The notes under the pieces were generated by a model. That model was not told the origin of the DNA. It did no database searches and worked only from the letters and a program-made list of their open reading frames with translations. Made by a program: the position numbers and the translations under genes. A stretch of 64,000 bases of DNA from positions 135,883 to 199,882 of the forward strand of contig CAZRGC010000002.1 in NCBI GenBank assembly GCA_964599625.1. Reading direction: 5' to 3'. This document shows, in pieces, positions 30,131 to 43,380 of the stretch. How positions within the stretch are numbered: the stretch's first letter is position 1; each line of letters opens with the position of its first letter. This stretch comes from an uncultured Gammaproteobacteria bacterium. GTDB taxonomy: Bacteria > Patescibacteriota > Microgenomatia > UBA8517.

Positions 30131-30802
30131 CTAGTTGTCGGCGAGAGCTTTGAACACATACGGTGCAATGCGAACGATGAAGTTCACGAGCGCCAGATAG
30201 ATGTTCATGGAAATCTCGACGGCGGCGGGCCAGGAATCTTCGGTGTACTGAAAGACAATCCGGTTGAAATGGAAGATCAGGTACACAAACCAGAACCCCG
30301 AGGCAAAGATGCCGATGAACCATTCAGCGCGTTGGCTTACAAACCCAACAAGCCCACCAATGGACAAGCCAAGGAGGACAATGAGGATGTAATAGAGCGG
30401 TCTCGCCAGAAACAGGAGGTTTACTCCGCTGAAAAGGCCGATCAATGACGCAACGAGGGTGGCACCAAATGCAATGCCCAACACGGTCAGGGTGGCGCGG
30501 TTGGTTTCTTCAGGGTCCATCTTGTTGAGAGCGCCCAATGCGGCAAAGAAACCACCGAGGTCAGCGGCCACTGCGGCTCCAAACACAAAGAGTGTGCCGT
30601 AGATGAGGAACGCGTTGCCTGTGGCCACGACCGGAGGAATCACAAACCAGATCATGACCAGGGCGAGCACGAAGCTTCCCAAAATCACAAGCCAGTTGAA
30701 GTAGTTCCGGAAAATGTAGGCGGCAATGGTTCCACCGATGAGCATGGTTACGAGCAACTCAAGTGAGCGCTCGAGCAAAGCGATTTGATCAGGTGTGATC
30801 AT
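30131..30802 (-). CDS. polytopic membrane protein (GC-rich gene)
   Basis: 223 aa with at least six hydrophobic helices. Local GC is visibly higher (~55%) than the flanks. Confidence 0.55.
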   Translation of the reverse strand: MITPDQIALLERSLELLVTMLIGGTIAAYIFRNYFNWLVILGSFVLALVMIWFVIPPVVATGNAFLIYGTLFVFGAAVAADLGGFFAALGALNKMDPEETNRATLTVLGIAFGATLVASLIGLFSGVNLLFLARPLYYILIVLLGLSIGGLVGFVSQRAEWFIGIFASGFWFVYLIFHFNRIVFQYTEDSWPAAVEISMNIYLALVNFIVRIAPYVFKALADN

Positions 30803-30998
30803 ATTTTTTTAAACCTTTCGCCGGTTGATTGAGGAATATACAGAAAAACAGAGGGTTTAATTCCGTTTTACTCCTATCCCTCAATCAGTTGTCTGAAGCT
30901 GTAAAAGTACCAAGGTGGATTTTGTCCACCAAGGCTGAATAATAACACAAACAAGCCTAAAAGTCAAGTTATAGGATATAAATATCACGTTTTGGTTA

Positions 30999-31037
30999 CA
31001 AAAAAAGCCCCGGGCAATTTGCTGTCTTGCCTGGGGC
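30999..31037 (-). terminator. rho-independent terminator downstream of 31043-31252
   Basis: Minus-strand reading gccccaggcaagacagcaaattgcccggggc followed by tttttttgt. Confidence 0.5.
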
Positions 31038-31042
31038 GTGTG

Positions 31043-31252
31043 TCAAAAGGAGTTGGCGATAGCGCTTACCAAAAGGTAAATCAGATACCCAATGAGTACT
31101 GCTATCCCCGCAAGCCCTTCGACTAAAAGCGTAAACCACGCAGTCTCGTGTGCTTCGTCGCCGAAAACTCCCAGGAGTCCCAAAAGATGCACAATCGGGA
31201 AGTTTAGGTATACGAAAAACCAAATACAGCCCATAAAAACTCCTAAAAACAC
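31043..31252 (-). CDS. small membrane protein
   Basis: 69 aa, two hydrophobic helices. Abuts the upstream gene (31253). Confidence 0.35.
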   Translation of the reverse strand: MFLGVFMGCIWFFVYLNFPIVHLLGLLGVFGDEAHETAWFTLLVEGLAGIAVLIGYLIYLLVSAIANSF

Positions 31253-31705
31253 CTATGAGTCGTAGGTGAAATGTATGTCTGCAGACTGAGCCAAAAATGT
31301 TTGTGAGCCTGGTTCGTATATCTGAACATTAAACTTCAAGTCGGCATGTCCTTTTGCCATGTGCAACTCGTCGTATGGCATAAATATAACCAGATCGTTG
31401 TAATGGCTGTTTACATACGGCAGGTTTAACTTTTGGGAAACGCTAACCTCACCGGTTACTGTTCGGTAAGCTTTGTTAGTGTCCTTTAGGGCTTGGCCGC
31501 TCTTGTAATAAAAGTAAGCCACTGCTTTGACATCCAATCCTTGGCAACCATTTACATCGAAACGTAAATGAATACGCATACCTTTGACGCCACCTTCGTG
31601 TACGTTGTGATCTACCCAAACATTCTCGAATTTGGCGGATTTAGGCGTTTGAGTACTTGGTTTCTGGGCATTGCGGATTACTATTTTAAAGTTTGGAATT
31701 AACAT
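31253..31705 (-). CDS. hypothetical protein
   Basis: ORF 31253..31843 trimmed to MLIPNF (31705), so it starts 2 bp after the upstream stop codon rather than overlapping 137 bp. Confidence 0.45.
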   Translation of the reverse strand: MLIPNFKIVIRNAQKPSTQTPKSAKFENVWVDHNVHEGGVKGMRIHLRFDVNGCQGLDVKAVAYFYYKSGQALKDTNKAYRTVTGEVSVSQKLNLPYVNSHYNDLVIFMPYDELHMAKGHADLKFNVQIYEPGSQTFLAQSADIHFTYDS

Positions 31706-31706
31706 C

Positions 31707-32501
31707 TCAGAATCCTGCCTTTTGGATTGCGACGTCCCAAGTCCGCATTTCATTGTAGATAATCTGCGCCGAGGATCTTGCTCCATATTGTTGGACAGCC
31801 AGATTTGGGTCAACCAATAATTTACTGGTCCGGCTTGGGTCATAAAGGTCCATTACATGTGTTACCAATGTGTTGTAGGCAACTGCTTGACCATAAATAA
31901 CCTTATTAACACCGTATGCAGCTGTATCATAAATACTGACTACAGGGATGAGTGCGGCAGCACCAACAGATATTCCGAGAGCTCCCGCGGTCGTCTTGTC
32001 GTACCCGTCTTTCAATGCAAGGTCGACAATTTCCTTTGCACCAAAAGTAGCTCCTGCAACACTCAACGCTTTATCCGGGACGTTCACCATTTGTATAAGC
32101 TTTTGCATAGCTTGGTAAGCTTCGCCGTAGGCCTTAAGGCTTGAAACTATGAAACCGGCTCCGCTAGCAAACTGATTTAAGGCTTCAATCTGTGCCTTGG
32201 TCAGTTGCTTGGTTTCGTTGGGTTGCGGAAAGACCAACTGCGTTTTTGGATCAGGGCTCGTTGAGTTTCGGCCGCTGCTTAATGGGTTAAAATCTGCTTT
32301 ACTCATCTCACGAATCGACGGCCCACTGCTCATTCTGAGGTCGTTATCGGCATGCGGATTATTTTTCCAAAACTCTGTTGCTTTCTGCTTCATTTTTTTG
32401 TCGCAGGAAGGACAAAGTTCGGGAGGGACGTCAAACATTCCCCCACCTTCATATTGAAAATCTTTACCACATTTTCCACATTTCTTGGTATAGATAGCCA
32501 T
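31707..32501 (-). CDS. hypothetical protein with N-terminal CxxC...CxxC zinc ribbon
   Basis: N-terminus MAIYTKKCGKCGKDFQYEGGGMFDVPPELCPSCDKKMK has 2x CxxC. Remainder Ala/Gly-rich. 264 aa. Confidence 0.5.
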   Translation of the reverse strand: MAIYTKKCGKCGKDFQYEGGGMFDVPPELCPSCDKKMKQKATEFWKNNPHADNDLRMSSGPSIREMSKADFNPLSSGRNSTSPDPKTQLVFPQPNETKQLTKAQIEALNQFASGAGFIVSSLKAYGEAYQAMQKLIQMVNVPDKALSVAGATFGAKEIVDLALKDGYDKTTAGALGISVGAAALIPVVSIYDTAAYGVNKVIYGQAVAYNTLVTHVMDLYDPSRTSKLLVDPNLAVQQYGARSSAQIIYNEMRTWDVAIQKAGF

Positions 32502-32645
32502 ATATACTCCTATCTGTTAAAGTACTCTGCAAAATTGCAGGGCGAGCGCAGTTTATCCTATCTGCCTATTTTTTCCAAGTAAGCCCGTTGGTGCTTGTTT
32601 CATCACGATTTGGTATAATACACATACTTTCTTTAAGTCATTCCG

Positions 32646-33521
32646 ATGCGAAAATTCTTAGCGGTACTGATTGCGTTTTTTGGCCTTTTAGCCTTTGGGG
32701 CAACCTCTTTGGTGGCCAAAACCCCAACACCATCCCCCACGCCTACTGCTGTTGCCACACCCACACCCGAACCTCCCAGGGTGGACATTACCCAAAAGAG
32801 TGAAGAAAGCCTTGGACCTTTGGAAATGCTACTTAAAACTCAGGAAGTTGGCCCAACTTGGCCGTGGAATCCTGTCAAAACCGCCATCAGGGGGGCAGTG
32901 GATAGCGGGGTTCCTGCAAACACAATTGTACTTCTCCTTCTTTTACCGATTGTGGCTTTTGTTATCGCCTTTTCCAGAAACGTTGTAGGTATTCGCGGAT
33001 TCGGTATTTTTATGCCCGCGGCACTTTCTGTGGTGTTTGTGGCCACGGGGCCGGTTGTGGGGATTGCCGTATTTTTGGTGATCGTTATTGTTTCCACCGC
33101 GGTGAGACTTGCACTCAGAAAAGTCAAACTCAGACTCCAGTATTTGCCCAGGATGGCATTTATATTGTGGGGGGTGGTTCTTGGGGTTTTGGGAGTCCTT
33201 TTTACCGCACCCATTATCAAATATCCCGACCTTTCAAATGTTTCTATTTTTGCAATTCTGATCATGATTCTTTTGGCGGAGGACTTTACCCGAGTTCAGC
33301 TTGGCAAAAGTGCCAAAACAGCCCTAGGGCTTACATTTGAAACTTTGATTTTGGCACTTATTTCATTCCTGTTTTTGACTCTACAGCCTTTGCAAAATTA
33401 CGTTCTTCTTAATCCCGAGGCGTCCCTTATCGGTATAGCCATCTTGGACCTCCTTCTTGGGAAATATACTGGGCTTAGGGCAATGGAGTTCTACAGGTTC
33501 AGAAAACTTATCAAAAACTAA
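32646..33521 (+). CDS. secreted 7TM-type membrane protein (first gene of ATP-grasp operon)
   Basis: Signal peptide MRKFLAVLIAFFGLLAFGATSLVA, Pro/Thr linker TPTPSPTPTAVATPTPEPP, a ~50-aa extracytoplasmic segment, then about seven hydrophobic helices to the C-terminus. 291 aa. Confidence 0.6.
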   Translation: MRKFLAVLIAFFGLLAFGATSLVAKTPTPSPTPTAVATPTPEPPRVDITQKSEESLGPLEMLLKTQEVGPTWPWNPVKTAIRGAVDSGVPANTIVLLLLLPIVAFVIAFSRNVVGIRGFGIFMPAALSVVFVATGPVVGIAVFLVIVIVSTAVRLALRKVKLRLQYLPRMAFILWGVVLGVLGVLFTAPIIKYPDLSNVSIFAILIMILLAEDFTRVQLGKSAKTALGLTFETLILALISFLFLTLQPLQNYVLLNPEASLIGIAILDLLLGKYTGLRAMEFYRFRKLIKN

Positions 33522-33533
33522 AAACTGACTTAA

Positions 33534-34829
33534 ATGAAAATCTCATCCATCTTGGGTTTGAACGCCAGAACTCAGCTTTTTGCTTACCGCTACAACTCAA
33601 AGGCAGGCAAAAAAGTTGCGGATTCCAAATTGCAAACTGCAAGAGTTCTTAAGCACGAGGGTGTGCCTCATCCTACAATCTACAAAAAGTTTCGCGACCC
33701 GCAACAGGTGTTGGATTTTGATTGGATGCGCCTTCCCGAAAAGTTTGCCCTAAAGCCAAGCAGGGGTTTGGGTGGTGCCGGAATAATTGTTGTAAAGAAA
33801 AAGTCTGCAGACGGGAAAGGGTGGTTCACCACTCAAAAAGAAAAAGTAACACCCGATGATCTTAAACTTCATACTTTGGATATTCTCGAGGGTGCTTTTT
33901 CGTTGGGTAGTGAGCCCGATGTTGCTTTTGTCCAGGAGTATGTAGGTCGGCACGAAGCTTTCCGTAAATGGGCATTCAGAGGCACCCCCGATGTACGTGT
34001 AATTGTATTCAACAAAGTCCCGATTATGGCAATGTTAAGACTTCCCACCAGGGAATCGGGGGGGCGTGCCAACTTGCACCAAGGCGCACTTGGTGTGGGT
34101 GTAGATATTGCAACAGGTGTAACAACACGGGCAATATGGCATGGCGACCCGATTGTTTTCAAACCCGGCACGGACAAAAAACTCAGGGGAATTAAAGTTC
34201 CTGAGTGGGAGAATGTACTAATGACTGCAGTTAATGCCCAGGTGGCATCAGGATTGACATATATTGGTGTAGACATCGTGCTTCATCCAACAAAAGGCCC
34301 AATGGTTTTGGAGCTTAACGCCCAACCCGGACTTCAAATTCAGCTTGCCAATATGGAAGGCCTCAAAAAACGCCTGGAAAGGGTGGAAGACTTGGATGTA
34401 AGTGACGCCAAACATGGAGTCATGATTGCCAAGGCTCTTTTTGCTGGGCGATTTGCCAGCGCAAAGGCAATGGAAGCCGGGGTTAAGACTATTAAAAACG
34501 ATGAAGTAGTAAAAATACTTCTGCCCAACGGCAGGCGTGTGACGGTAAATGCCAAAGTGGACACCGGTGCGTGGAGAAGCTCGATTGATAAGTCGTTTGC
34601 CGAACGTCACGGTTTATTGGATAATGAAAATGTACTTTGGACCAAGGTTTTCAAAAGTGCATTGGGAAGTGAAAAACGCCCTGTAATCAACCTGAGTTAT
34701 TATCTGGCGGGAAACAAGATCAATACAATGGCGTCAGTAGCCAATAGGGGCAACCTCAAAAAAGAATTCATAATTGGCAGACGGGATTTGCAGGGATTTG
34801 TTGTAAAAGTTAACGATTACACGAAGTGA
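33534..34829 (+). CDS. ATP-grasp ligase fused to C-terminal retropepsin-like aspartic peptidase domain
   Basis: The N-terminal ~300 aa show the ATP-grasp pattern (KPSRGLGGAGIIVV, VQEYVGRHEAFR, DVRVIVFNKVPIMAMLR). The C-terminal ~110 aa have VTVNAKVDTGAWRSSID (D-T-G-A active-site motif of retropepsin-like 'Zn_protease' domains) and ...IIGRRDLQGFVVKV. Confidence 0.65.
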   Translation: MKISSILGLNARTQLFAYRYNSKAGKKVADSKLQTARVLKHEGVPHPTIYKKFRDPQQVLDFDWMRLPEKFALKPSRGLGGAGIIVVKKKSADGKGWFTTQKEKVTPDDLKLHTLDILEGAFSLGSEPDVAFVQEYVGRHEAFRKWAFRGTPDVRVIVFNKVPIMAMLRLPTRESGGRANLHQGALGVGVDIATGVTTRAIWHGDPIVFKPGTDKKLRGIKVPEWENVLMTAVNAQVASGLTYIGVDIVLHPTKGPMVLELNAQPGLQIQLANMEGLKKRLERVEDLDVSDAKHGVMIAKALFAGRFASAKAMEAGVKTIKNDEVVKILLPNGRRVTVNAKVDTGAWRSSIDKSFAERHGLLDNENVLWTKVFKSALGSEKRPVINLSYYLAGNKINTMASVANRGNLKKEFIIGRRDLQGFVVKVNDYTK

Positions 34830-34848
34830 TGAAATACACAAAAAGATA

Positions 34849-35745
34849 ATGGAGCAAAAGAAAATACTAATACTGGTAACCAAAATAAGTGAAACCAAAA
34901 ACAGGTTTTACGATGCCATAAGTGCAAAAATCTCCAAAGATGTAAAAGTTGATTTAGCCGTTTTTTCGGATATTGGAGTAGTTATTGATGGAGAAAAGAC
35001 TTCGGTTTTCATTGATGACACAGACATCAAAAATTACAACCTTATATACATAAGGAGATCTGGTGAGGAATACAAAAAGCTGGCTTCAATTGTTGCGCTT
35101 TATTGCCATTCCAAGGGGGTCAAGTGTTTGGATTCCGCCAACAGGGAAGCGGGAACTTTTTCCAACAAGTTGTATTCACTTCTTAAACTTCACAACGAAG
35201 GTTTTCCTGTCATACCCACCGTTATGGTCAACAGGAAAAAAGTTTTGCAGGAGGCGGACGGACTTGTTGCCAGATTTGGTTTACCGATGGTTGCCAAAGA
35301 TACTCATTCCCAACGCGGTAAAGGAGTTTTTTTGATCAAAGAAAAAGATGACTTCCAAACGGTTTTGGACAAAGTTTCCGACAATCAGCTGATGTTTCAA
35401 AAGTTTATAGAAAAGAAAAGAGAATACAGGGTTCTTGTTCTCAGAAACAAAATAGGTTGTTTCGAAGAAAAAGTAGCAGACCCTGGAGAGTTTCGGAACA
35501 ATGTTTCCCTGGGTGCTGCCGAGCTTTTTTTGGACATAGATTCTATCCCCACAACACTCAAAGACTTGGCTGTAAATGCCGCGGGGGCATTGGGGATTGA
35601 GATTGCAGGCGTAGACATTATAGAAGCGGTTGATGGCAACGATTACATTTTGGAAGTAAACAGGGGCCCGGGACTTACGTATGATTCTTCCGAATCTCCC
35701 GAAACCGCTAACATAGCAAAATTCCTGGAGGAGGAAGTCCAATGA
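34849..35745 (+). CDS. RimK-like ATP-grasp ligase (alpha-L-glutamate-ligase family)
   Basis: Pre-ATP-grasp region LIYIRRSGE..., GLPMVAKDTHSQRGKGVFLIKEKDDF and FQKFIEKKREYRVLVLRNK (central domain), GVDIIEAVDGNDYILEVNRGPGL (catalytic Mg site). 298 aa. Confidence 0.75.
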   Translation: MEQKKILILVTKISETKNRFYDAISAKISKDVKVDLAVFSDIGVVIDGEKTSVFIDDTDIKNYNLIYIRRSGEEYKKLASIVALYCHSKGVKCLDSANREAGTFSNKLYSLLKLHNEGFPVIPTVMVNRKKVLQEADGLVARFGLPMVAKDTHSQRGKGVFLIKEKDDFQTVLDKVSDNQLMFQKFIEKKREYRVLVLRNKIGCFEEKVADPGEFRNNVSLGAAELFLDIDSIPTTLKDLAVNAAGALGIEIAGVDIIEAVDGNDYILEVNRGPGLTYDSSESPETANIAKFLEEEVQ

Positions 35746-36680
35746 AAAATATCGGCATCTGTTTCTCCAAAGAATTTGAAGGTGATAACCCCCTGGGTCA
35801 CATTGGCGTAAAACTTCCTGTTTATACAAGGCTTTTAGATCTTTTGGTTAAAGCGGGTTATTCGGCATTTGTATTGACAAAAAAGACATATGTTGGCGGC
35901 GGTGTCTTTGATGGTGTTTGGGAGTGGGGGGATATGGGTTTTGAAAAGCTGGACGAAAAAGTGCAGATGGATTTGGTGTATGACAGAAGCGCAGGCGTGG
36001 GTTTCCCACCCGAAGATGACGGGGTAATCTGGGTCAATAGAATCAGTTTTAAGACACTTTGCTGGGATAAATGGGCTGGGTTTAAAGAAATCGGTGAATA
36101 TATGCCTCAAACAGTGTTAGTTGAGTCGGAATCTGACATATCTAAAGCTGTGGAAGAAATAAAAACCGATTGGGTAGTTCTCAAACCTTTCAACGGACTC
36201 AAAGGTCTTGGGGTATTTATCGGACCAAAAGATGAAGCCGTAAGGTTTAAGTTCCCCGAAAAATACAAAAAATACATTGCACAGGAATTTGTGGACACAT
36301 CAAAAGGTATTACCGGTGTGACACCGGGTAAACACGACTTGAGAGTGGCGGTGGTAAATAGAGAACCTGTTTGGTGCCATGTAAGAGTCCCGGCAGAAGG
36401 AACATATTTGGCAAATGCGGCTCAGGGCGGAAACCTAACCGAAGTTGATTACAATAATGTTCCATCTGAGATAAAAAAGGTCGTGGAATCGGTTTCGGAG
36501 AAGTTCTATCAAGAACACGACAACCCCATTTTCAGTTTAGATTTCGGCATGAATTTTGACGGAAGGCCTTTGATTTTTGAAATAAATGATCAAATAGGTT
36601 TTCCCAAATGGGAAATGAACAATAGAGATATTTTTTTGAAAGCATTGGTTGCAAACTTCAGTTCAAAGCTTGGCAAGTGA
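35742..36680 (+). CDS. ATP-grasp-fold ligase (third, divergent)
   Basis: VLKPFNGLKGLGVFIGPKDEAV and ...KHDLRVAVVNREPVWCHVRVP...LDFGMNFDGRPLIFEINDQIGFP follow the ATP-grasp order. Start overlaps the previous gene by 4 bp. Confidence 0.6.
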   Translation: MKNIGICFSKEFEGDNPLGHIGVKLPVYTRLLDLLVKAGYSAFVLTKKTYVGGGVFDGVWEWGDMGFEKLDEKVQMDLVYDRSAGVGFPPEDDGVIWVNRISFKTLCWDKWAGFKEIGEYMPQTVLVESESDISKAVEEIKTDWVVLKPFNGLKGLGVFIGPKDEAVRFKFPEKYKKYIAQEFVDTSKGITGVTPGKHDLRVAVVNREPVWCHVRVPAEGTYLANAAQGGNLTEVDYNNVPSEIKKVVESVSEKFYQEHDNPIFSLDFGMNFDGRPLIFEINDQIGFPKWEMNNRDIFLKALVANFSSKLGK

Positions 36681-36692
36681 TACAATTGCGGT

Positions 36693-37259
36693 ATGGAAAA
36701 AGTCACATATAGGACCCCTGAACAAAGCTATGAAACATTTAATAAATGGCTTCAAGATTTAACTGTTGAAGGAAAAGTGGGGGATATAGAACCCTCCGTG
36801 GTACGTTTTGTTTTGGAAGGAATGGGGGCCAATTTTGAAATAAGCGAAAGCGAAAGGGAGTCTTTGGGCAAGTATTCCAACAAAGGAAAAAGGGAGGGAC
36901 TCAATGCAGTTTGGGGAACAGATAAGATAGACACTTTTAAATCCTGGGTGATAGGCGAGTATATTCCGTATATAGAGAAAGCAGCAGGTCGGGATCTCCA
37001 CACTTTGTATGACAAAAAGACTGATACATATGACGATGTAAAACATTCAGGGATGATGCAATTTTTGGGAGAGCTAACTGCATATGCATCTGAGCAGATG
37101 GATTTTGATAAGTACAAAAGAATAACTGAGAACCGGTATTCAAAAGGGAAACATTGGCAATACGGAGATCGTGAAGAAAAATACGTCCCAAGCAAAAATT
37201 CCTCGTTCCCGGTAGATTTTCCACGCAAGGCGATAGACAGACTTAGTGCCTCATTTTAG
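36693..37259 (+). CDS. hypothetical protein (last gene of ATP-grasp operon)
   Basis: 188 aa, 12 bp after the preceding gene. Acidic/aromatic. No motif. Confidence 0.45.
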   Translation: MEKVTYRTPEQSYETFNKWLQDLTVEGKVGDIEPSVVRFVLEGMGANFEISESERESLGKYSNKGKREGLNAVWGTDKIDTFKSWVIGEYIPYIEKAAGRDLHTLYDKKTDTYDDVKHSGMMQFLGELTAYASEQMDFDKYKRITENRYSKGKHWQYGDREEKYVPSKNSSFPVDFPRKAIDRLSASF

Positions 37260-37370: not shown

Positions 37371-37400
37371 CAAAAAATCCCGCCTCCTCGGCGGGATAAT
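37371..37400 (-). terminator. rho-independent terminator after rplL
   Basis: Minus-strand atcccgcc-gagga-ggcgggat followed by tttttgtgg. Confidence 0.65.
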
Positions 37401-38582: not shown

Positions 38583-39005
38583 TCAGCCGTCGGTTCGGGC
38601 ACGTTTAATCGTTTTAACGTAGTCAATGTCTCCTTGATCTGTCATATTGAGTCCTTGTCTAACAGCTTCGTCGTAGTCAGCTTTGGTTAAGCCCGAATAA
38701 TCCAACCCTTTTGGTTTTGAGTCCATTTGTCCAAATTTGACAGTGGCTCTGCCCACCTTGCGGCGATAATCCTCTGCGGTCACTGGTTGGCTGTGTGGAG
38801 CATTGCTTTCCCTAAGTTGTTTATCGGTTAATTTGGACCCTGTGTGTTCTTTCAATCCTTCTGTTTTAACCGTTACCGGGTGCCAGTTTGCCCATGCTTC
38901 GTTTCCTGTATCTTCACCGTACTCTCGGGTGGTTTTTTCTGCTTCCATCAGGGGGCTAGGGTGGGTGTTGGCATCAAAATTATCGCTTTTATTGTTGTCC
39001 ATCAA
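38583..39005 (-). CDS. hypothetical protein inserted between rplA and rplJ
   Basis: 140 aa, hydrophilic. Start overlaps the upstream ORF by 4 bp. Confidence 0.45.
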   Translation of the reverse strand: MMDNNKSDNFDANTHPSPLMEAEKTTREYGEDTGNEAWANWHPVTVKTEGLKEHTGSKLTDKQLRESNAPHSQPVTAEDYRRKVGRATVKFGQMDSKPKGLDYSGLTKADYDEAVRQGLNMTDQGDIDYVKTIKRARTDG

Positions 39006-39622
39006 AGCTTTTTATTTTCTGGAAGTAAATCATATGCTCTTACTACATTCCAACCTTCTTTAACCAAAGTGTCTTTTTGAGCAGGAAGCATAAACTCTAT
39101 AAATTTTGGATGATCAGAAGATGGGGTTCTACCTTTCAGTAGGCGACTGGTTAGTGCGCCTGATTCTTTGAAATATCTTGGCCCCAGTTTCGTGTTCACC
39201 TCAAGAATTGAATTCTCAGGCATTGAATGGATTCTGATTGGTTGTTCATCTTCCGATCCTGGGAATATTCCAAAAAAGGGAGTAGCTTCCAGAACCGGTT
39301 GTGTGGAAACAGTAAAATAGTCGTAAATTGTTTCGTCTTTTGGCTTTTCTTTTGATAATGGGAGTGTGGCCTCGTGTGAGCTTGAGGCCGACTTGGCAGC
39401 AACTTCTTTACTAAGCATTTCAACATATCTGGTTTGTGGATTGTCGGGCGGGGCGCCTTGTCCGGTTGTTTCTGCGTCTTTCCTTTGCCTTTCGCGGAGT
39501 GCCCCAAGCTCTGCTTGTCTTTTGTTGTGAATATCCAGCGATTCTTGCCAGAGATTTTCCTCCATTGCGGGAACTTGAGCAAAACTTGTTATTTTTTCAT
39601 CACCACTGGTAGATTCAGCCAT
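39002..39622 (-). CDS. hypothetical protein inserted between rplA and rplJ
   Basis: 206 aa, acidic N-terminus, no motif. Confidence 0.45.
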   Translation of the reverse strand: MAESTSGDEKITSFAQVPAMEENLWQESLDIHNKRQAELGALRERQRKDAETTGQGAPPDNPQTRYVEMLSKEVAAKSASSSHEATLPLSKEKPKDETIYDYFTVSTQPVLEATPFFGIFPGSEDEQPIRIHSMPENSILEVNTKLGPRYFKESGALTSRLLKGRTPSSDHPKFIEFMLPAQKDTLVKEGWNVVRAYDLLPENKKL

Positions 39623-40988: not shown

Positions 40989-42224
40989 TTACCAGGGAAG
41001 GAGTGTCAAAATGAATCTCTTGGAAGCGGCCCCTCCTGCCTGGTCACGTGCGGTAGTTGTTAATCTAAACGTTCCAAACTTTCTCGGTGCAATGCCTGAA
41101 TAAGTGCATTTGTATGTTTTCCTGGTAGCTGTGACGTTTGCGGTGCAAGTCACATTGTTGAGCCATTTAGGAAGGCCGGAGGTGTTTATTGCAACGGTGT
41201 CCCCGACGTTTAAATCGTAAACTGTAATTGTCATCGAATATCTTCTTCCTCCGTGTGCAACAGGAATGCTTCTTGTCGTTATTACTGGTGCAACGTTTGC
41301 AACCGGTGTTGCAGAGGGGGTGGGTGACGCAGAAGGCGTAGATGATGGTGTTGCGGTTGGTGCAACAGTCGGGCTTGGTGTTGGTGTTGCAACATTAAGC
41401 ATTGTGCCTGTTGCGTAGTAATTGTCAAAATAACCTATGGTGTCAGGATATGTGCCTGTGTTTTCCACAACCAATCTGGGAAATGTTCCGTCTCCCAAAA
41501 GTGGGCTGTAAAGCATATCGAGAATGTTTACAAATGTACCGTTTGTTGCATCATAGAGATAAACAAGGATCTCGTTTCCACTTCTTTGCAACTTAACTCT
41601 TTGGGGAGAATTAAATTGTATAGATCTGGAAACAATCTTTGTAGAATTTGCAGGTGTGTTGTCCGGGCTTGTCCACACCTCAATGAATTCGGAAGATCCG
41701 ACTTTTGCGCGTCTTACTGATATTGATCCACTTGGGGCGAATTTCAATTCCTGCCATCCGTTTTCTGAAGTCACACCAAGAAGGTCAACCTCAGCCGAGA
41801 AATCTCCTGTAATTTGGGGAATTTGATAATTAACAAGTGCCTGGACAACAACATCGTTTCCTCCGACGCCGTCTTGTCCTTGGCTGACAGATGCTTTAAG
41901 TCTTTGGTTATCGATGCTTGCGTCTGACCCAACTGTGCCTGACCAATTCCACTTAGCAGGGTCCAAAAGGTTAAATGGTTCATATATCGAAACGGGTGTA
42001 GCAGGTCTGGGTGTGGGCGTTGGTGTACCGGTTGGTGTGAATACGGGTGTCGGGCTTGGTGTAAACGGAGGTGTTACGGGCAAAGTTGGCGTGGGTGTAA
42101 CAGGGGAAGTAACAGGAGCGGTAACAGGGTAGGCGCCATAAGCACCGGATGCCAAAAAGAATAGTGGTAATATTACAGTAGATGAGATAAGCGCCAAAAC
42201 GCCTGTCTTTGAATTTAATCTCAT
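40989..42224 (-). CDS. secreted protein with two Pro/Thr-rich linkers (inserted between nusG and rplK)
   Basis: Signal peptide MRLNSKTGVLALISSTVILPLFFLASGAYG, PT repeats (PVTAPVTSPVTPTPTLPVTPPFTPSPTPVFTPTGTPTPTP and ATPTPSPTVAPTATPSSTPSASPTPSATP) and a beta-rich middle domain. 411 aa. Confidence 0.6.
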   Translation of the reverse strand: MRLNSKTGVLALISSTVILPLFFLASGAYGAYPVTAPVTSPVTPTPTLPVTPPFTPSPTPVFTPTGTPTPTPRPATPVSIYEPFNLLDPAKWNWSGTVGSDASIDNQRLKASVSQGQDGVGGNDVVVQALVNYQIPQITGDFSAEVDLLGVTSENGWQELKFAPSGSISVRRAKVGSSEFIEVWTSPDNTPANSTKIVSRSIQFNSPQRVKLQRSGNEILVYLYDATNGTFVNILDMLYSPLLGDGTFPRLVVENTGTYPDTIGYFDNYYATGTMLNVATPTPSPTVAPTATPSSTPSASPTPSATPVANVAPVITTRSIPVAHGGRRYSMTITVYDLNVGDTVAINTSGLPKWLNNVTCTANVTATRKTYKCTYSGIAPRKFGTFRLTTTARDQAGGAASKRFILTLLPW

Positions 42225-42225
42225 A

Positions 42226-43380
42226 ATGCGGAATTATAGGAGATATATATTGTTAAGTCAAATCTTGTTTGCGTGCGTGATTTTGATCTTTGGCAATTGG
42301 GCAGTTGTAACTTATGAGATACCCAAAGTCATCGCCTTCCAATGGTTTGTAAGGTTTTTGGTTCTGGTTTTGGCTGTGTCTTTTTTCAAAAAACCCAAAA
42401 AGTGGAAAGTTGATAGCAAAGTGTCAAAGCCTGTTTTGATTTTTACCGGTGTTGCTATTGTAAGTTCGATTTTAGGGGTGAACGTAACAAAAAGTTTTAC
42501 AGGCAATTTTTACAGGGGCGATGGTCTTATAACTTTTTTGAGTTTGGTTGGATTTGCATTTGTGGTCAGTTACTTTTGGAAAGAGGAGTTTAATAAATAT
42601 TTTGCAGAGGTTATTTTTTGGACTTCCACTTTGCTGTCCGGATTTTATATTGTATCGACTGTTACTCCGCAACTTTCACATATAAGTGCAGCAGGATTCG
42701 GTAATTCCGTATTTTTGGCAGGATTTCTGGTCACGGCTTTGCCATTCTCATTTTTTTATCTGCGGGAAAAAACAGATAAATATTTACGCCTGGGGCTTTT
42801 TGTTCAAGTAATTTCCTTGTTCTTTATGAGCGCGACAGCGGCAGTAATAGTACTTTTTGTGTACGCTTTGATGCTTGTCGGGCGCTTTGTAAAAATTGGC
42901 TTTAGACGTTTTTTAGCCACAGGGCTATTGATTGCCGCTTTGGCCACAGGCTTTGTTTGGGTAAGAAATTACCGGTTGGAAAGTTCAAAATCGTTAATCG
43001 CGGAGGGCAGGGCAAGGATTTTTATAAACGGTCTTCAAGGGTTTGCAAGCCGCCCTGTGTTGGGATACGGCTGGAGCAATTTTGATGCAGCATTCCAAAA
43101 AGGTACATGGCCAATCAAGCTAAATAACGATGTTTATGTGGACAAAGCGCATTCGGAGTTTTTGGAAGTGCTGGTTTCAACCGGTGTGGTTGGAGTATCT
43201 GTGTATTTGGCTTTGCTTTTTGTTTTATACAAAAAGCTCAAAAGTATTTCCAATACAAACTGGGGTTTTACACTTTTTTCGGTGTTTGTAATTTATATTC
43301 TACATTCACAAACAAACGTAATATCAATTTCAGAGCAAATTCTGTTCTGGTTTGGGATGGGGTACGTCTTAAGAAGTTAG
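42226..43380 (+). CDS. O-antigen-ligase-family (Wzy_C-like) polytopic membrane protein
   Basis: About 10 TM helices plus the family-typical periplasmic loop RARIFINGLQGFASRPVLGYGWSNF...KAHSEFLEVLVSTG. 384 aa. Confidence 0.6.
   Translation: MRNYRRYILLSQILFACVILIFGNWAVVTYEIPKVIAFQWFVRFLVLVLAVSFFKKPKKWKVDSKVSKPVLIFTGVAIVSSILGVNVTKSFTGNFYRGDGLITFLSLVGFAFVVSYFWKEEFNKYFAEVIFWTSTLLSGFYIVSTVTPQLSHISAAGFGNSVFLAGFLVTALPFSFFYLREKTDKYLRLGLFVQVISLFFMSATAAVIVLFVYALMLVGRFVKIGFRRFLATGLLIAALATGFVWVRNYRLESSKSLIAEGRARIFINGLQGFASRPVLGYGWSNFDAAFQKGTWPIKLNNDVYVDKAHSEFLEVLVSTGVVGVSVYLALLFVLYKKLKSISNTNWGFTLFSVFVIYILHSQTNVISISEQILFWFGMGYVLRS

Follow-up and report, generated by a model that had tools for sequence, protein, structure and literature searches.

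The closest described relative of the gene cassette that we analyse here is the rloABC operon of Pseudomonas aeruginosa, studied genetically by Lormand et al. (mBio 2025, PMC12239564), in which a seven-transmembrane (7TM) protein, an ATP-grasp ligase of the ATPgrasp_ST family and a retropepsin are encoded together. Rlo, a name given recently, is a system of cell-envelope stress and occurs in other Gammaproteobacteria as well. Our cassette is an operon of five genes, g1 to g5, in a 64,000-nucleotide (nt) stretch of contig CAZRGC010000002.1 from a Microgenomates bacterium (Patescibacteria); by the window we mean that whole stretch. In P. aeruginosa, the RloA proteases are secreted and cleave runs of at least 8 glutamates; residues K46, D48, R114 and R137 coordinate poly-Glu, and the changes R114A and R137A abolish function (PMC12239564). 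Rlo affects hypo-osmotic stress tolerance and sensitivity to beta-lactams. Loss of all three RloA proteases results in osmotic, biofilm, antibiotic and cell-shape defects, and deletion of rloB or rloC suppresses the defects caused by protease loss, which places the protease, the 7TM protein and the ligase in one pathway (PMC12239564). The authors raise peptidoglycan homeostasis as an explanation, and they report 96% of the RloB matches from Proteobacteria (PMC12239564). A Shewanella RloB mutant over-produces membrane vesicles.

The other system to compare is that of RimK and RimB. Poly-alpha-Glu is synthesised by RimK, whose activity is stimulated by RimB, a protease that also cuts poly-Glu tails; a natural RimBK fusion (Desulfotalea DP2392), in which the protease is N-terminal, is proteolytically active (JBC 2025, PMC11957791). 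The tubulin code, with its TTL/TTLL ligases and MATCAP/CCP carboxypeptidases, is an analogy of logic only, that of extending and trimming acidic tails. A MATCAP domain does occur in a Gracilibacteria homologue of our cassette, but the two differ in their organisms and substrates, a tubulin-like target is not known, and no MATCAP gene is encoded in the window. The families PF14397 and PF14402, together with the idea of peptide-ligation systems, reportedly go back to work by Iyer, Abhiman, Burroughs and Aravind in Mol Biosyst in 2009. That study was outside the reach of our literature searches, which found no description of the Patescibacterial form, and the main text of a Saccharibacteria transposon-sequencing paper does not mention the cassette genes.

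We propose, with a probability of about one half, that the operon is a Patescibacterial variant of Rlo, belonging to the candidate phyla radiation (CPR) and Microgenomates/Woesebacteria-like: a membrane-anchored, ATP-dependent system of non-ribosomal peptide ligation with a built-in trimming endopeptidase, and with a product that is most likely rich in glutamate. What is new here is a widespread and strongly conserved Patescibacterial variant; the Rlo system itself, biochemically unsolved, is already known. An initial annotation of this DNA had described five co-directional genes with gaps of 12, 19, -4 and 12 bp, and its coordinates agree exactly with the list of open reading frames (ORFs). 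Its domain calls were also correct, as annotation with hidden Markov models gave a 7TM domain, ATPgrasp_ST plus retropepsin, a RimK-like ATP-grasp and a divergent ATP-grasp. What it did not recognise is that the core of 7TM protein, ATPgrasp_ST ligase and retropepsin is that of rloABC, which was given its name in the 2025 genetic work on P. aeruginosa. The five genes, with lengths in amino acids (aa), are as follows.

32646-33521, + strand: g1, 7TM membrane protein, 291 aa, ATG start
33534-34829, + strand: g2, ligase-retropepsin fusion, 431 aa, ATG start
34849-35745, + strand: g3, RimK-family ATP-grasp, 298 aa, ATG start
35742-36680, + strand: g4, divergent ATP-grasp, 312 aa, ATG start, which overlaps the g3 stop by 4 nt
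36693-37259, + strand: g5, helical protein, 188 aa, ATG start

The membrane protein and the ligase-protease fusion

The Rlo-like core resides in the first two genes, in which we distinguish the following features.

33573-34388, + strand: RloC-like ATP-grasp domain of g2, residues 14-285, from PF14397 and TIGR02291
34527-34817, + strand: RimB/RloA-type retropepsin domain of g2, residues ~332-428, from a profile match to RloA structures
34560-34562, + strand: codon of the catalytic D343 of g2, in the D-T-G-A motif
32646-32723, + strand: signal peptide of g1, residues 1-26, from hydropathy
32916-33467, + strand: 7TM domain of g1, residues ~91-274, seven hydrophobic helices, from hydropathy

The ligase half of g2 matches PF14397 ATPgrasp_ST (Pfam) with E = 1e-63 (215.7 bits, cut-off 31.4). 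It also covers 286 of the 317 model positions of TIGR02291, "alpha-L-glutamate ligase-like protein" (E = 4e-78, 262.6 bits), without reaching the equivalog cut-off of 314. We take TIGR02291 to be the family of P. aeruginosa RloC, an assumption based on the family description and not on the RloC sequence. Against TIGR00768, the RimK family, g2 scores 46.9 bits (cut-off 143). Residues K75 (in LKP), R178-x-N, D247 and E260-x-N262 are essentially invariant among 34 homologues, and the near-invariant motifs of the family in these 34 sequences are LKP...G.GG.GI, NKVPIMAMLRLPT..S.G(K/R)ANL, G(V/A)D and LE(L/I)NA.PGL.

For the C-terminus of g2, single-sequence searches give weak matches to Zn_protease/Asp_protease (Pfam; residues 332-427) and to RimB-like and RloA2/RloA3 models, with scores under the cut-offs. 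A profile of 29 g2-type C-terminal domains matches PDB 9G58 and 9G59, two RloA-family crystal structures, over the whole domain with E = 1e-9. The D-T-G-A motif occupies residues 343-346 of g2, and both D-T/S-G-A and IIGR(R/K)DL are present in 33 of the 34 homologues. Residues K341, D343, R382 and R405, invariant or nearly so, correspond in the alignment to RloA's K-x-D, R-P-V and D-R, which are K46, D48, R114 and R137; in 9G58 these positions are spaced D+66 and D+89, the same as D48, R114 and R137 of P. aeruginosa RloA. The N-terminus of g2 is not hydrophobic, and the protease is the C-terminal domain of a 431-aa ligase, not a separate secreted protein, which holds for all 33 related loci described below. 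More than 5000 homologues of g2 exist. The best 120 are all at least 70% identical and 419-446 aa long, save one of 402 aa, and the named sequences among them are from Woesebacteria, Microgenomates, Woykebacteria and Saccharimonadia.

The first gene, g1, matches PF14402 7TM_transglut (Pfam) with E = 1e-24 (87.8 bits, cut-off 25). To the NCBIfam RloB model NF052267 it aligns only at model positions 312-508 of 508, the C-terminal 7TM part (E = 3.7e-15), and its 55.6 bits are far under the 900-bit cut-off. No transglutaminase-like Pfam domain was found in g1 or in the five CPR homologues tested. Between the signal peptide and the 7TM domain there is a proline- and threonine-rich (P/T-rich) linker followed by a conserved extracytoplasmic segment, and the C-terminal tail is basic. 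The layout implies a predicted topology with the N-terminus out and the C-terminus in, and the invariant residues of g1 are concentrated in the predicted cytoplasmic loops, at R111-G120, R154-R169 and E212-S222, and in the tail. The protein was initially described as secreted; it is a membrane protein with a signal peptide. An AlphaFold2 (AF2) model of g1, built with 30 homologues of 70-97% identity, has a mean predicted local distance difference test (pLDDT) score of 49.8. Its helices agree in position with the hydropathy profile, and we use the model for helix positions only, with no fold search from it. Across the CPR, the 7TM proteins range from 217-218 aa (the 7TM domain alone) up to ~520 aa with an N-terminal PKD domain, and forms with a P/T-rich linker also occur.

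A genome scan yielded 33 loci from Microgenomates, Parcubacteria (Moranbacteria, Falkowbacteria, Kaiserbacteria), Saccharibacteria and Gracilibacteria; labels such as L001 and L002 designate related genome loci that carry the cassette. A g1-type 7TM gene immediately precedes the fusion gene in 32 of these loci, and often the stop codon of the first overlaps the start codon of the second; the single exception is a locus cut by a contig end. The initial annotation had proposed the genes as a functional set, and their homologues are indeed found together across at least 33 loci. All five genes follow each other in the same order in L037 and L039, whose flanks also agree with those of the window (an ABC transporter upstream, rplL downstream).

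Compared with Rlo, the cassette combines the same three families in one operon: PF14402, ATPgrasp_ST/TIGR02291, and a RimB/RloA-type retropepsin with DTG and aligned basic residues. The differences from Rlo are that the 7TM protein of the window, as in the CPR homologues tested, lacks the inactive-transglutaminase ectodomain, that the protease is neither secreted nor stand-alone but fused to the C-terminus of a cytoplasmic ligase, that the flap region of the protease is shortened in the lineage of the window, that 0-4 additional ATP-grasp ligases and a cassette-specific helical protein are present, and that the hosts are Patescibacteria. The cassette shares with RimK/RimB of Pseudomonas fluorescens, and with RimBK, a cytoplasmic ATP-grasp ligase coupled to a poly-Glu-type retropepsin, and g3 is of the RimK family. 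Unlike RimBK, g2 has the reverse domain order, with the ATP-grasp (14-285) before the retropepsin (~332-428). Unlike RimK, the g2 ligase belongs to the ATPgrasp_ST family and has no RimK N-terminal domain. Two further differences from RimK/RimB are that the cassette has an obligate 7TM partner and that nothing points to S6 as its target.

Accessory ligases and other variable genes

The genes downstream of the pair are variable. The initial annotation singled out a version with three ligases, which turns out to be one of many, as the number of accessory ATP-grasp genes ranges from 0 to 4 in Patescibacteria. At least one is present in 22 of the 25 complete loci that we counted, and two or more in 14.

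No accessory ATP-grasp gene: 3 loci
One accessory ATP-grasp gene: 8 loci
Two accessory ATP-grasp genes: 8 loci
Three accessory ATP-grasp genes: 5 loci
Three or four accessory ATP-grasp genes: 1 locus

The window has two, g3 and g4. g3 is a full-length RimK-family ATP-grasp that matches Pfam RimK PF08443 with E = 3e-23 (82.8 bits, cut-off 21). It passes only this general domain threshold, since it scores 99.1 bits with TIGR00768, under the 143-bit cut-off, and 54.7 bits with NF007764, under the 331-bit cut-off. Its closest PDB relatives are RimK structures (E = 2e-11), and the catalytic residues K150, R216-x-N, D256 and E269-x-N271 are present. g4 is more divergent. It matches RimK, ATPgrasp_ST, GSH-S_ATP and YheCD (Pfam) with E-values from 1e-7 to 4e-10, it scores 53.5 bits with TIGR00768 (cut-off 143), and its sole PDB match is glutathione synthetase (E = 0.008). 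Orthologues of g4 are present in cassettes of Microgenomates and of Parcubacteria, and K148, D199-L-R, D267 and E280-x-N282 are conserved. The three proteins that were initially called ATP-grasp ligases (g2, g3 and g4) all have the ATP-binding Lys and the Mg-binding Asp and Glu-x-Asn, which their homologues share. The g4 family, which keeps these and has lost the Arg of the R-x-N motif, may have an altered chemistry or a helper role.

The last gene, g5, has no match in Pfam, NCBIfam or PADLOC. It had been taken for an ORFan, and we find that it belongs to a conserved, cassette-specific family of 39 clusters at 90% identity and 132 representatives at 50% identity, all stand-alone. Members at 37-50% identity to g5 are all located at the 3' end of the same cassette. 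A search of 1.84 billion representatives with the g5 profile returned only small stand-alone proteins and no informative fusion. The AF2 model of g5 is all-helical with a pLDDT of 90, and a PDB fold search with it gave no convincing relative. Conservation of g5 is lowest at the C-terminus, which is also not acidic. This makes g5 a poor candidate for RimK-style C-terminal tagging, the role of ligation substrate that the initial annotation had suggested for it, and for the same reasons we rejected g5 as a LysW-like carrier or RimK-type substrate.

Other enzyme genes are found in particular cassettes.

L004, L014, L018: GNAT acetyltransferases
L007: methyltransferase
L014, L017: glycosyltransferases
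L030: DUF3541
L014, L027: MATCAP/DUF1704-type metallopeptidases

The Gracilibacteria homologue of g2 (L034:1058-3391) is a protein of 777 aa with ATPgrasp_ST, a degenerate retropepsin (ISLGA) and a C-terminal MATCAP/DUF1704 metallocarboxypeptidase (E = 1e-50). To judge from these domains, one peptidase has apparently been replaced by another and the pairing of ligase and trimming peptidase preserved. The MATCAP-like proteins of the Parcubacteria cassettes (L014:7432-8832 and L027:10431-11774) are stand-alone and 448-467 aa long, and in both the N-terminal ~200 residues match no Pfam family. Directly after the fusion gene of L024 there is a Mur-ligase-like gene (L024:9413-10672; Mur_ligase_M and a weak Mur_ligase_C), which would add to the cassette an amide ligase of another, unrelated type.

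Possible products and destinations

As a variant of Rlo, the cassette could work as follows. The ATP-grasp domain of g2 would link amino acids into an oligo- or poly-acidic chain, free or bound to an acceptor; its family is plain from the profile matches, and from it we infer that the amino acid is most likely L-glutamate, in alpha linkage. The retropepsin, which has the residues for it, would dimerise and cut the acidic chain, setting its length or releasing the product, and the ligase may be stimulated by it in the way that RimK is by RimB. g1, always paired with the fusion, would dock the ligase at the membrane by its basic, invariant cytoplasmic loops and either pass the product to the envelope or present an acceptor. 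The accessory ligases, variable in number and type, would be interchangeable, with g3 and g4 extending the same product, and g5 would be a cassette-specific helical adaptor or acceptor. The swapping of peptidases, by fusion in L034 and as stand-alone genes in L014 and L027, fits this logic of a ligase plus a trimming peptidase. The physiological output is likely a modification of the cell envelope, a destination at which several features hint: the adjacency of the cassette to a penicillin-binding protein (PBP) gene in Parcubacteria, the glycosyltransferase, GNAT and Mur-ligase-like genes, and the phenotypes of the Rlo mutants and of the vesicle-forming Shewanella mutant. As the initial annotation had it, the most sensible reading is still that several ligases build or tag a peptide, and its proposal that the three of them work one after the other on a single substrate is something that we can only infer.

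Several observations weigh against this proposal. No member of ATPgrasp_ST/RloC has a demonstrated substrate or product, so the specificity for Glu is extrapolated from RimK and from the basic channel residues of the protease. g2 is missing the ~100-residue N-terminal acceptor-binding domain of RimK (residue 31 of g2 aligns to residue 99 of RimK). The window-type protease is also missing ~27 residues of the RloA flap, such that D343 and R382 are 39 residues apart compared to 66 in RloA, and its specificity could differ from that of RloA; in Parcubacteria homologues the insert at the flap is longer than in the g2 of the window. g4 and its relatives have L, F or K in place of the Arg of the R-x-N motif. 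The confidence of the g1 model is too low (pLDDT 50) to distinguish between export, anchoring and sensing by the 7TM protein. An encoded acceptor is not apparent either: the window has no encoded poly-acidic runs and only one short ORF with an acidic C-terminus, and the 12-19 bp gaps of the operon leave no room for the ORF of a precursor peptide. The genomic neighbours in Microgenomates are ribosomal-protein genes, and the PBP adjacency in Parcubacteria may be inherited synteny, as the unrelated yebC and ruvC flank the other side.

The rival explanations that we considered are not fully exclusive of each other. The one that survives best, although we regard it as unlikely, is a reversible tailing in the style of RimK/RimB, in which one or more of the ligases would extend the C-terminus of a cytoplasmic protein (S6, a different ribosomal protein or g5) by Glu or other residues and the retropepsin would erase the tail. 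It has the precedent of RimB and RimBK. The full-length RimK-family protein g3 also speaks for it, as its closest matches in the PDB are S6-glutamate ligases, even if its score falls under the RimK family cut-off. In Microgenomates, including the window, the cassette always adjoins, and is convergent with, rplL-rplJ-rplA-rplK-nusG; these ribosomal genes are not co-transcribed with it, though, and the Parcubacteria have other neighbours. The recruitment to some cassettes of MATCAP-type carboxypeptidases, which in eukaryotes trim acidic tails, also agrees with tailing. The invariant partner of the fusion, however, is a 7TM membrane protein, for which the tailing of S6 has no need. The g3-type genes are optional, three complete loci having no accessory ligase at all, and g5 has the variable, non-acidic C-terminus described above.

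A modification of cell-wall peptides is less probable still. Here the amino acids would go to the peptidoglycan stem peptide, the cross-bridge or a lipid-linked precursor on the inner side of the membrane, and the 7TM protein would handle the lipid-linked intermediate. In 13 Parcubacteria loci (within L014-L032), yebC-ruvC lies directly before the cassette and a class A PBP gene directly after it, on the same strand, an example being the transglycosylase-transpeptidase of L018:11858-14395. That linkage is absent in Microgenomates, the window included, and the synteny of yebC/ruvC suggests an inherited order and not a shared function. The D-Ala-D-Ala ligases are ATP-grasp relatives of g3, L024 has its Mur-ligase-like gene, other cassettes have GNAT and glycosyltransferase genes, and the Rlo mutants have cell-shape defects and a sensitivity to wall antibiotics, for which peptidoglycan homeostasis was raised (PMC12239564). 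Against these, it is hard to see what a ligase-fused endopeptidase of the poly-Glu type would do in the synthesis of stem peptides, and no known family of wall-precursor enzymes is found among the core components.

Finally, a small soluble peptide or glutamylated metabolite, from an L-amino-acid-ligase cluster or an MptN/CofF/GshB-type pathway with the 7TM protein as exporter or sensor only, is very doubtful: g3 and g4 are weakly similar to glutathione synthetase and to MptN, CofF and LysX, a row of different ligases is reminiscent of the stepwise assembly of short peptides, and some cassettes have GNAT and methyltransferase genes, but all of the similarities are far under equivalog cut-offs, a di- or tripeptide is an ill match for an endopeptidase with relatives that require 8 Glu or more, 0-4 ligases around a constant core argue against a fixed small product, and these reduced genomes are not known to make such cofactors.

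The Rlo-variant reading also has consequences for Rlo itself. In its Patescibacterial form the system is pared down to what is essential, a ligase and a 7TM module that can have as few as 218 aa. In this form, the transglutaminase-like ectodomain is dispensable and the protease can work in the cytoplasm attached to the ligase, and a fused cytoplasmic protease argues that the true substrate of the protease is the ligase's own product. The pair is a compact two-gene unit for reconstitution, and its minimal fused architecture constrains how Rlo systems work. Its retention at 70% identity or more across Microgenomates, and its presence in Parcubacteria, Saccharibacteria and Gracilibacteria, all with reduced genomes, suggest an important part for the pair in the envelope or the physiology of Patescibacteria. 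The variable accessory ligases, peptidases, GNATs and glycosyltransferases suggest that the product has diversified between lineages. A bolder form of the Rlo-variant reading, which we think unlikely to hold, is that the 7TM protein and the fusion constitute a previously unrecognised membrane-coupled, template-independent polypeptide synthase-exporter that delivers an acidic polymer of defined length to the surface of the ultrasmall Patescibacteria, and that the accessory ligases may decorate or branch this polymer. If that were true, the product would be a core envelope polymer, and it would supply the missing biochemical function of Rlo in pathogens.

Operon boundaries, selection and neighbouring genes

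Two candidate transcription signals frame the operon.

32611-32619, + strand: extended -10 element, promoter-like, TGGTATAAT, ~27 nt before the g1 start codon, spotted by eye
37377-37397, unstranded: G+C-rich hairpin ATCCCGCC-TCCTC-GGCGGGAT, between g5 and the convergent rplL

A TATAAT box is found at a comparable distance upstream of the g1 homologue in L002, L007, L009 and L037. A scan for the sigma-70 consensus gave no more matches than the shuffled expectation, and TGGTATAAT is absent from its output because a good -35 box is lacking. The hairpin has 8 stem pairs, of which 6 are G-C, and it is followed by a T-run on the - strand and by the weaker AATTTGTTGT on the + strand. From this layout, it is likely a bidirectional terminator that closes the operon. 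Rfam and tRNA scans gave no match inside or adjoining the operon.

With the closest genome relative, L002, g1 to g5 have protein identities of 74-94% and nucleotide identities of 71-80%. The ratio of nonsynonymous to synonymous substitution rates (dN/dS) is 0.04-0.05 for g1 and g3; for g2, g4 and g5, dS is saturated and dN is 0.04-0.18. From this pattern, all five are real genes under purifying selection. The G+C content of the window is ~43%, with no break in composition at the operon, and nothing in the setting suggests that the operon came from a mobile element. A search of the five proteins with PADLOC models gave no match at E <= 0.01, and we dropped a defence-system reading on that account.

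Several neighbouring genes may be recorded.

30131-32501, - strand: three genes that diverge from the operon, one for a Bax1-I-like membrane protein of 223 aa, one an unmatched ORF of 196 aa and one for a 264-aa protein with an N-terminal zinc ribbon
38583-39622, - strand: two ORFs of 140 aa and 206 aa, with a 4-nt overlap and no Pfam match, between rplJ and rplA of the rplK-rplA-rplJ-rplL cluster
40989-42224, - strand: a 411-aa secreted protein with two long Pro/Thr-rich linkers, in the P/T-linker style of g1, and no Pfam match
42226-43380, + strand: a Wzy_C (O-antigen-ligase-like) membrane protein, divergent from the 411-aa P/T protein

The 196-aa and 264-aa ORFs overlap by 137 nt as listed, so that one start codon is probably further downstream; in L001 a 150-aa gene is called there. 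Unannotated ORFs between rplJ and rplA are found also in L002, L004 and L037, and none in L003, L006, L009 and L039. The records of L002, L005, L008, L009 and others are titled "uncultured Gammaproteobacteria", "Alphaproteobacteria" or "Bdellovibrionales" despite a Patescibacteria-type cassette and ribosomal clusters, and these titles are probably taxonomic mislabels.

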